Below, piece by piece: positions 57,807-59,061 of a stretch of 64,000 nt of DNA. Each line of letters begins with the position of its first letter. Position 1 is the first letter of the stretch. Origin of the DNA: Escherichia coli (GTDB taxonomy: Bacteria > Pseudomonadota > Gammaproteobacteria > Enterobacterales > Enterobacteriaceae); NCBI RefSeq assembly GCF_002854065.1, contig NZ_CP024147.1; one strand, 5' to 3'. The position numbers were made by a program, and so were the translations under genes. The notes under the pieces were generated by a model. It saw nothing but the letters and a program-made list of their open reading frames with translations, made no database searches and was not told where the DNA came from.

Positions 57807-58871
57807 TTACCTAGCGATGAGCGCGAACACGCCCCAGCCAAAGTATTCCCGCGCGTAAGTTACGTGGCGTTTCGGCGAGAGTGATAGCTCGGCCCTGACT
57901 TCGGCGGCGAAGCCGTCGTCAGGATTCGCTTCCAGCCAGCGGCGCATGGTCAGCCATTTCGCGGCTTCATACCGGTCCCAGCCTTCCTGGTCTGCCAGTA
58001 CCATTTCCACCACGTCGTAGCCGAGTTCATCGAACGCGTTGACAAGCCCTGGCAGCGTCAGGAAATCGGTCGTCGAGCTGACGCCGCAGGCCTGGGCAAT
58101 CTCTTCCGTCGCAGGTAGCTGACGCCAGTAGGGTTCGCCGATAAGCATGATCCCGCCCGGTTTCAGGCTTTGAGCCAGCAGCTCGATGGTCCCGGCAAAC
58201 CCACCGGCTATCCATGTCGCACCGACACAGGCAGCCACGTCGCATTTCTCTTCTGTAACATATCCGGCGGCGTCGTTATGTATGAACTGAACCCGGTTGC
58301 TGACGCCGAGCTCTTCTGCGCGGCGTCTGGCCTGCTCGCTGAACAACTGGCTCATATCGATACCGACACCGGTAATGGCGTGGTCCCGGGCCCAGGTACA
58401 GAGCATCTCGCCCGAGCCGCTGCCGAGGTCAAGAATGCGGGTATCCGGCTTCATGCGCAGCACACGGCCCAGCGTGGCGTACTTCTCTTCGGTGAACGGG
58501 TTATGAATACGGTGCTCACTTTCGCTAATTGTAAAAATACGTGGGATATCCAATGTTGAATTCCTTTTATTGCGTTGAGTATGAAGAGGAAGTTCCTCTG
58601 AGGTTTTTGCTTTTTCAGCCAGCAGAGCAAACAGCTTTCCTTCAAATGTCTCGCTGACTGGCCAGTCGTGATCCTGAGACAAATGGTTCGCCATCATGTG
58701 TTGGCTGAAGGCCGGTTCGTCCCAGGGGATTGTACTTTCCTCCGCTGACAGCTGGACGTGTCGGGATGAGGAAATAAGGGGACTGATATCCACCATGCTC
58801 TCCTTAGCGGTTATCAAGCTGAGCGCGGACGTTATGCAGCCCGGTGGTGTTGATTCGGTAGGGCTGGCCAT
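57807..58871 (-). CDS. Class I SAM-dependent methyltransferase (start codon uncertain, likely an internal Met)
   Basis: Motif [12 protein letters not shown]; the longest ORF overlaps the 3' end of the YjhX-like gene, so the true start is probably downstream. Confidence 0.6.
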
Positions 58872-59061
58872 TGACGGACTTGATCAGTTTTTTGGTTTTG
58901 AGTTTTTTGAAGACGGCGAGCGTGCAGTCGGTCAGCAACAGCCCCTCGCGGCTGTAGCATTCAACGGAAGTGACGCGGCCTGAAGAATCGCGGACGTGCG
59001 CAATACGTCCACCTTTAGCGAGAACGTGTAAGGTACGTTGTTCCTGACGGGATAAATTCAT
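58804..59061 (-). CDS. yjhX: YjhX/TopAI-family small protein (putative topoisomerase-inhibitor toxin)
   Basis: 85-aa [49 protein letters not shown]... matches the UPF0386/YjhX family from memory. Confidence 0.7.

Follow-up and report, generated by a model that had tools for sequence, protein, structure and literature searches.

The toiL-topAI locus of an Escherichia coli leuX island, a decayed variant of the methyltransferase-type operon

The topAI (yjhX) locus at positions 57,807 to 59,061 of a 64,000-nt stretch of Escherichia coli DNA (contig NZ_CP024147.1; the whole stretch is called the window below) is a decayed variant of the methyltransferase-type form of a known operon. It represents the toiL-topAI operon of the leuX island in the version that carries methyltransferase genes downstream of the toxin gene in place of yjhQ. 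The ancestral second cistron was probably a fused two-domain gene, MT2::yjhP, encoding 545 aa; MT2 is the name given here to the second class I S-adenosylmethionine (SAM) methyltransferase that follows yjhX. A 651-bp in-frame deletion between 9-bp direct repeats (CACGACTGG) removed the whole first catalytic domain, leaving 45 N-terminal and 36 C-terminal/linker codons of MT2, which run into the intact YjhP domain. Taken as a whole, the decay of such an operon is the best explanation of the locus, with a probability of about 0.8. The topAI gene, the second cistron, the GNAT acetyltransferase gene upstream and the Zn-ribbon gene downstream are all on the minus strand, as are the other features of the operon given below.

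Origin of the segment between topAI and yjhP

In K-12, topAI is followed after an 11-nt gap by yjhQ (546 nt, encoding a 181-aa GNAT protein), which is separated by a further 55-nt gap from yjhP. In the window, only 250 nt lie between topAI and the annotated start of yjhP, and nothing is annotated there. Blastn homology to K-12 stops 6 nt past the topAI stop codon and returns 26 nt before yjhP; between these points the window has 218 nt in place of the 580 nt of K-12 that include yjhQ. The cognate antitoxin gene, as the earlier note on this DNA had remarked, is not directly downstream of topAI, and the gene order is unlike that of K-12. Neither of the findings that the note had named as refuting it, an 85-aa ORF outside the YjhX family or the K-12 gene order, was thus made. 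No yjhQ homologue was found anywhere in the 64-kb window (best tblastn E=0.67). A degraded yjhQ was considered as the source of the spacer and rejected, since the spacer has no blastn similarity to the K-12 yjhQ region and matches MT2. A consensus scan for a promoter or terminator between topAI and yjhP gave nothing on the minus strand and nothing above the expectation from shuffled sequence.

The spacer begins with 146 nt that match the 5' end of the class I SAM-dependent methyltransferase gene that follows the YjhX gene in 134 complete E. coli genomes. The MT2 family is well conserved, about 280-296 aa in length, and occurs in Salmonella, Citrobacter, Yersinia, Pantoea, Serratia and Shewanella. 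The order in Salmonella is yjhX, 10 nt, MT2 (294 aa), 4 nt, yjhP, and in Shewanella a third methyltransferase gene stands between yjhX and MT2. The remnant in the window, designated ΔMT2, occupies 58554..58796 and consists of 81 codons, 45 from the N-terminus and 36 from the C-terminal tail and linker, in frame with yjhP and without the catalytic domain. When the window is compared by blastn with a syntenic full-length E. coli allele (L004), the two blocks of similarity abut or overlap on the 9-bp sequence CACGACTGG, which encodes His-Asp-Trp (HDW), and the window lacks exactly 651 nt (217 codons) of L004 at this point. The sole surviving copy of this direct repeat, at 58662..58670, marks the deletion junction; both copies are present in the full-length alleles L004, L010, L012 and L073.

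The protein alignments agree with this junction. In BLASTP against a 545-aa fusion protein (P0273), residues 2-45 of the predicted window product match residues 1-44, with 86% identity to the MT2 N-terminus, and residues 41-329 match 257-545; the tail of the remnant aligns to MT2 residues 257-297 of P0273. Residues 45-261 of P0273 are lost in the window, and the first methyltransferase domain found by Pfam (Methyltransf_25/11/23, residues 45-178) lies inside the lost part. A tblastn search with Salmonella MT2 matches 58566..58667 of the window at 71% identity. In the 329-aa product Pfam finds only the YjhP domain (residues 103-264), the SAM-binding Rossmann-fold domain of MT2 being gone. At the level of sequence, then, the ancestry of the remnant, the deletion junction and the absence of yjhQ are established, as is the integrity of topAI and of its toiL leader described below.

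The presumed parent is a fusion that can be found in extant genomes. In the alleles L004, L010, L012 and L013 the frame is open through MT2 into yjhP, the MT2 stop codon having been lost and the yjhP ATG having become TTG, whereas K-12 and Salmonella have kept both the yjhP ATG and the in-frame stop upstream of it. Hundreds of contigs from E. coli, Klebsiella, Citrobacter, Enterobacter and Salmonella carry an annotated fused protein of 545-546 aa. The MT2::yjhP fusion is therefore a real and widespread protein in the Enterobacteriaceae. Its YjhP part is present in full in the window, where 248 codons and a stop occupy 57807..58553, annotated by the Prokaryotic Genome Annotation Pipeline (PGAP) in a near-identical genome as a coding sequence (CDS) starting from TTG 58553. 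It is 91% identical to K-12 YjhP, contains Pfam methyltransferase domains and matches PDB entry 1NKV ('hypothetical protein yjhP') with E=5.6e-155 over residues 1-248. Searches of solved structures and of NCBIfam for a function of YjhP or MT2 returned only generic small-molecule methyltransferases or methyltransferases of unknown function, and 1NKV itself is uncharacterised. The best match of MT2, to an entry named ubiquinone O-methyltransferase (E=1.5e-30), is well below equivalog level.

MT2 carries three HDW-coding repeats of the form CA[CT]GA[CT]TGG, at about nt 133, 619 and 784 in L004, L010, L012 and L073. In the window the deletion has brought repeats 1 and 3 together; in a locus of Hafnia paralvei (L021:4338-4672) an independent deletion has done so with repeats 1 and 2. 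Yet another in-frame deletion, different from these and running from the MT2 tail into the middle of YjhP, is found in a 397-aa protein of Salmonella Typhi (P0023). From these three cases it follows that deletions have destroyed MT2 on at least three occasions, two of them between HDW repeats, which look like a recurrent hot spot of deletion by microhomology.

The region 57400..59950 of the window has a 100% match in the chromosome of E. coli VTB96935v, isolated from a chicken in South Africa, while the same region is only about 91% identical to the window in a further 1,660 or so complete E. coli genomes, K-12 among them. If the short spacer were an artefact of assembly or sequencing, the strain would in fact possess a complete MT2 or yjhQ. 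The one observation that could be raised in favour of this is how rare the allele is, at 1 of 5426 complete genomes. The same 1255 nt are found without change in that complete genome and in independent draft assemblies from five distinct places, and all 24 of the contigs read have both the 250-nt spacing between topAI and yjhP and the identical 1255-nt sequence, so that an artefact can practically be dismissed. The exact TopAI protein of the window is present on 254 contigs and the exact 248-aa YjhP on 230. The ΔMT2 allele is, on these sequences, real and stable rather than a one-off. No second copy of the topAI-yjhP region was found in NZ_CP178662.1.

Start of the second cistron

The longest open reading frame (ORF) downstream of topAI, 57807..58871, encodes 354 aa and overlaps topAI by 68 nt (58804..58871). 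The earlier note had described the 3' end of the toxin gene as overlapped by a methyltransferase ORF. Such an overlap exists between the ORFs, but it does not extend to the genes. The matches to methyltransferase domains begin only at about residue 128-141 of the 354-aa ORF, and the part before them matches no domain. A real methyltransferase gene starting at ATG 58871, with a true 68-nt gene overlap, would have in its favour that the ORF exists and is the longest form. ATG 58871 is, however, absent in all eight related alleles, six of which have an in-frame TGA between that position and the conserved start, and neither a Shine-Dalgarno sequence nor a conserved start is found at 58871. The 25 stop-free codons upstream of the conserved start (58797..58871), which are the source of the overlap, would arise by chance with an estimated probability of about 0.3. 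A gene starting at 58871 is consequently highly improbable, and the overlap of toxin and methyltransferase appears from these comparisons to be a matter of chance and not a feature of the gene. The 354-codon ORF and its overlap are accounted for by the in-frame deletion scar together with a lineage-specific ATG upstream.

Examination of the ribosome-binding site (RBS) and of conservation, which the earlier note had called for, favours as the start not 58871 but ATG 58796 (58796..58794), directly after the topAI stop, where a Shine-Dalgarno sequence (GGAG within TAAGGAGAGC) precedes it; together they span 58794..58803. The motif TAAGGAG follows the yjhX stop in 42 of the 80 species-level yjhX loci that were classified (kept from at least 593 loci found), the next gene starting 7-14 nt later, and the MT2 and yjhQ starts of relatives align at this same site. 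By these alignments it is the conserved start of whichever gene follows yjhX.

The open frame from this start to the end of yjhP, 57807..58796, is the predicted full second cistron, ΔMT2::yjhP. It has 329 codons, which equals the 545 codons of the fusion less the 217 deleted, plus one extra start codon; since the 651-nt deletion is in frame, the remnant reads straight into yjhP. Translation would begin at ATG 58796, as a coupled start after TAAGGAG, and the favoured main product is the 329-aa ΔMT2::YjhP, although some 248-aa YjhP may be made in addition by internal initiation at TTG 58553.

Several observations weigh against parts of this interpretation. An intact parent allele nearly identical to the window was not found among the loci fetched, the closest full-length alleles being 90-93% identical. 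Every sampled copy of the allele is identical, which gives no sign whether the 81-codon extension is under selection. The remaining points concern the start. PGAP, which called 57807..58553 as yjhP and left the spacer unannotated, and the gene callers behind the protein collection model only the 248-aa protein from TTG 58553. That collection has the 248-aa form on the 230 contigs mentioned above and no exact match to the 329-aa or the 354-aa product, so that neither long form has an outside annotation in its favour. The sequence AAGGA at 58562..58566, 8 nt upstream of TTG 58553, lies at the position of the K-12 CAGGA before ATG and corresponds to the Shine-Dalgarno sequence used by that ATG, which makes internal initiation plausible.

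On the PGAP model the 250 nt would be the untranslated scar of a pseudogene, and yjhP an independent 248-aa gene with a Shine-Dalgarno sequence of its own. The conserved start, TAAGGAGAGC followed by ATG after the topAI stop, is nevertheless intact and in frame with yjhP, with no stop codon before it, so that ribosomes initiating at 58796 must read into YjhP. Moreover, TTG replaced ATG precisely in those alleles in which the two genes are fused. The PGAP model is thus a serious possibility, though one given less than an even chance, and it overlaps with initiation at 58796, as both products could be made. The gene model is to be corrected, there being no overlap of toxin and methyltransferase genes and the likely product being either the 329-aa ΔMT2::YjhP or the 248-aa YjhP.

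The toxin, its leader and the absence of yjhQ

The topAI gene, at 58804..59061, is intact, with 85 codons, and encodes a topoisomerase I inhibitor family protein. The assignment of this ORF to the YjhX family in the earlier note is borne out: all 85 residues align to Pfam PF09857 (YjhX_toxin; E=6.3e-42, 141.9 bits against a cut-off of 27), and NCBIfam NF010240 is matched with 156.5 bits (cut-off 99). The protein is identical to K-12 TopAI at 80 of 85 residues (94%). In an alignment of 20 sequences, every YjhX residue that is invariant or at least 90% conserved is kept in the window, including R9 and G18. K-12 TopAI, the sole member studied experimentally, has H9 and R18 at these positions; as R9 and G18 are shared by at least 90% of the sequences in a diverse family alignment, the reference toxin may be atypical for the family. 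Topoisomerase I inhibition, and toxicity on over-production, have been shown only for K-12 TopAI (PMC4666372).

The K-12 operon is kept off by a hairpin between toiL and the topAI RBS and by Rho termination, and is switched on by ribosome-stalling antibiotics (PMC12121999). In the window, the upstream ORF (uORF) toiL, encoding MLENVIIR and a stop codon, is found at 59174..59200, with its ATG 139 nt upstream of the topAI ATG. Both the peptide and this distance are identical to the K-12 version described in PMC12121999, and the region was aligned with K-12 and Salmonella. The topAI leader, 59057..59203, is predicted to fold with a toiL::topAI-RBS stem; its minimum free energy fold has -55.1 kcal/mol and the same architecture as those of K-12 and Salmonella. 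A consensus fold of 52 leaders keeps the stem, with compensatory changes on both sides (e.g. CG to UA in 6 sequences). No Rfam family matched the leader or the spacer at E<=0.1. On this comparison the toiL leader and the repressing hairpin are intact in the window. As leader and gene are 94% identical to K-12, control of the K-12 kind, that is, antibiotic induction and Rho-dependent termination within topAI, probably holds for the window allele as well. The operon would then be off through the toiL/RBS hairpin and Rho termination and on in the presence of ribosome-stalling antibiotics.

The earlier note had asked for the toxin-partner relationships to be checked, the expected antitoxin gene not being directly downstream. 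That yjhQ is missing stands; its absence is not special to this DNA, as most species-level yjhX loci have no YjhQ-like gene. Among the 80 classified loci, yjhX is followed by yjhP in 25 (plus 4 with a truncated yjhP), by a third methyltransferase of about 237 aa (MT3) in 10, by MT3 and MT2 in 3 and by MT2 and yjhP in 5 (plus 2 decayed). Arrangements with a YjhQ-like GNAT account for 18 loci, and 13, one of them at a contig end, have none of the downstream gene types tested. In all, 56 of the 80 have a methyltransferase downstream of yjhX. Across the set toiL-yjhX is constant, and the genes that follow it vary. A toiL-like uORF lies 122-143 nt upstream of yjhX in 78 of the 79 loci with enough upstream sequence, including those of Acinetobacter, Chromobacterium, Dechloromonas and Alphaproteobacteria. 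The complete E. coli genomes comprise about 1,640 of the yjhQ type, 7 with full-length MT2 and the single ΔMT2 allele; about 127 others have only a yjhX paralog adjacent to lsrG, with MT2 cut by IS100, and no topAI in the leuX island. Variation in the downstream genes was not described in the 2015 and 2025 studies of the TopAI system, the only ones found.

Several of the other arrangements were seen in some detail. MT3 (Methyltransf_25/11) stands directly after yjhX in Enterobacter, Kluyvera, Leminorella, Budvicia, Yersinia frederiksenii and Shewanella (L037:3765-4478, L055, L087 and 10 others). Fusions of an HD_3 (YfbR-like) phosphohydrolase with a YjhQ-like GNAT follow yjhX in Pseudomonas salomonii (L078:3773-4840) and Acinetobacter gyllenbergii (L081); these, seen outside the Enterobacterales, are counted within the 18 YjhQ-like loci. 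The lsrG-adjacent paralog (L003 and L005, from E. coli 806883-9-2019 and NCTC86) has a toiL-like leader of its own and an MT2 truncated by an IS100/IS21-family element, and its yjhX is intact with no intact partner gene beside it.

The classification makes a toxin gene without yjhQ an ordinary finding, and the 'missing antitoxin' of the window reflects a different set of downstream genes together with a deletion. TopAI would need no YjhQ because it is tightly repressed, as in most species without a YjhQ-like neighbour; by analogy with K-12, tolerance of the intact TopAI most likely rests on repression by the leader and Rho.

Two other ways of supplying TopAI with a partner have to be weighed. 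The earlier note was right that a GNAT gene precedes topAI: it occupies 59401..59877 as a PGAP CDS in the near-identical genome, the longest ORF extending to 59907, and is a separate gene upstream of the topAI leader, of the Acetyltransf_3 (RimJ-like) type (Pfam PF13302, E=1.6e-17). A takeover of the antitoxin role by this gene might be suggested by its GNAT fold, like that of YjhQ, by its position next to topAI, and by K-12, which has yjhQ and only a fragment of the upstream GNAT. The protein is nevertheless unrelated to YjhQ in sequence (BLASTP E=1.1) and belongs to another GNAT subfamily, and a promoter and leader region of 339 nt lies between it and topAI. Many E. coli genomes, and C. amalonaticus, moreover have both this gene and yjhQ, so that one does not exclude the other, and a takeover is very unlikely. 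The gene is syntenic in both a yjhQ-type locus (L016) and an MT2-type locus (L073). That it is a displaced YjhQ was rejected on the same E value and on its co-occurrence, at the same position, with yjhQ. A 3.2-kb contig labelled as a Collinsella sp. metagenome-assembled genome (L014, JAIJJM010000365.1) carries a 99% identical TopAI, the upstream GNAT and yjhQ, and is most likely a mis-binned enterobacterial contig.

The second candidate is the methyltransferase beside yjhX, here YjhP or ΔMT2::YjhP, which could neutralise TopAI or work with it where yjhQ is lacking, so that the toxin would have a partner after all. This would fit the occurrence of one of three SAM methyltransferase types at the 56 loci counted above, the usual distance of 7-14 nt from the yjhX stop, suggestive of translational coupling, the intactness of YjhP in the window, and the suspicion of the authors of PMC12121999 that topAI, yjhQ and yjhP have further functions. 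At 13 loci, however, none of the tested gene types is present downstream, and in about 127 E. coli genomes an intact yjhX persists beside the IS100-truncated MT2 with no adjoining yjhP. A methyltransferase partner is accordingly unlikely, though less so than an antitoxin role of the upstream GNAT.

While the toiL leader is essentially universal, yjhQ is lacking at most of the species-level loci and in over 130 complete E. coli genomes. Control of TopAI may, on these counts, rest mainly on the leader, and the acetyl- and methyltransferases downstream may be what the operon serves to express. These two possibilities bear on why ribosome-targeting antibiotics induce the operon; the 2025 authors speculate that the functions of topAI, yjhQ and yjhP are tied to what toiL senses (PMC12121999). 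Tentatively, toiL-yjhX could be a conserved module that responds to translation stress by expressing exchangeable enzymes encoded downstream, with YjhQ one option and not a dedicated antitoxin. The enzyme types observed at the loci examined are the three SAM methyltransferases, the YjhQ-type GNATs and the HD-GNAT fusions. If this were so, TopAI-YjhQ would fall outside the classical toxin-antitoxin pairs, the enzymes would be directed at the molecule or ribosomal state sensed by toiL, for instance by modifying the antibiotic or its target, and the lineage of the window, with topAI and only the YjhP domain, would be a natural minimal version. Lineages of this kind would be natural yjhQ-null backgrounds. 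The constant toiL-yjhX module with its variable downstream enzymes is a more interesting lead than the decayed allele itself.

Genomic setting and relation to known systems

The genomic island holding the topAI region starts at the tRNA-Leu(CAA) gene leuX (40360..40444). Its cargo (40000..57000) consists of an integrase, a type I restriction-modification system, an AAA ATPase and a PD-(D/E)XK nuclease with an argonaute, followed by the topAI module, which by this gene content adjoins a defence island. A 1330-nt copy of IS2 (53182..54511) lies inside the argonaute/piwi gene (about 54172..56403), with a 5-bp target duplication, CGTCC. VTB96935v, otherwise 99.98% identical, is without this IS2 and has an intact argonaute gene (743 aa) adjoining the PD-(D/E)XK nuclease gene. 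By this extra insertion the window does not derive from precisely that strain.

Downstream of yjhP, after 127 nt, is a Zn-ribbon gene (57428..57679; PF12674, Pfam E=7e-10), a conserved neighbour found after yjhP also in loci of C. amalonaticus, C. braakii, Hafnia and E. coli; it may be the last gene of the topAI unit. Three genes of the VOC/glyoxalase family are present within 7 kb (56988..57380, 60022..60414 and 63226..63660), the one downstream of the Zn-ribbon gene being a pseudogene with an internal stop according to a PGAP note. Two GNAT genes and mdtM are in the same stretch, which gives a cluster of small detoxification-type genes around topAI.

The closest described system is the toiL-topAI-yjhQ-yjhP operon of K-12 (Yamaguchi & Inouye 2015, PMC4666372; Baniulyte & Wade 2025, PMC12121999), with which the window has in common the leuX island, the toiL peptide and its distance, the predicted leader hairpin, TopAI (94%), YjhP (91%) and the stop-TAAGGAG junction after topAI. 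It differs from K-12 in the absence of yjhQ, the only demonstrated antitoxin, whose place is taken by what is left of an unrelated methyltransferase gene, 81 codons that read into yjhP in frame, and in the yjhP start, which is TTG and not ATG, the upstream in-frame stop being gone. The attenuation systems of the ermCL-ermC type, a likeness drawn in PMC12121999, also use a short uORF to sense antibiotic-stalled ribosomes and open a hairpin over a downstream RBS, and SAM methyltransferases are downstream in both. Unlike these systems, the present operon has no sequence relation to Erm, its first regulated gene is yjhX and not an enzyme, and Rho termination is also involved; no resistance function is known for YjhP, MT2 or YjhQ.

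Among the methyltransferase-type relatives, the yjhX-MT2-yjhP operons of Salmonella enterica, Citrobacter braakii, Yersinia massiliensis and Morganella have the gene order and the second-cistron start of the window, and the 545-aa fused MT2::YjhP of E. coli, Klebsiella, Enterobacter and Citrobacter has in common with it the fusion junction with TTG and a lost stop. The N- and C-terminal parts of the remnant align to the MT2 of both. In contrast to these intact systems, the window is without 217 codons that include the whole MT2 Rossmann-fold domain, and YjhP is the only methyltransferase domain left. The decayed MT2 alleles of Hafnia paralvei (L021), S. Typhi (P0023), E. coli R2 (L011) and the lsrG-adjacent paralog have likewise, and independently, lost MT2 function beside an intact yjhX. 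The causes differ: Hafnia has a deletion between repeats 1 and 2 and S. Typhi one that runs from the MT2 tail to mid-YjhP, R2 carries a nonsense mutation, and in the paralog an IS has inserted. The first HDW repeat was used by both the Hafnia deletion and that of the window.

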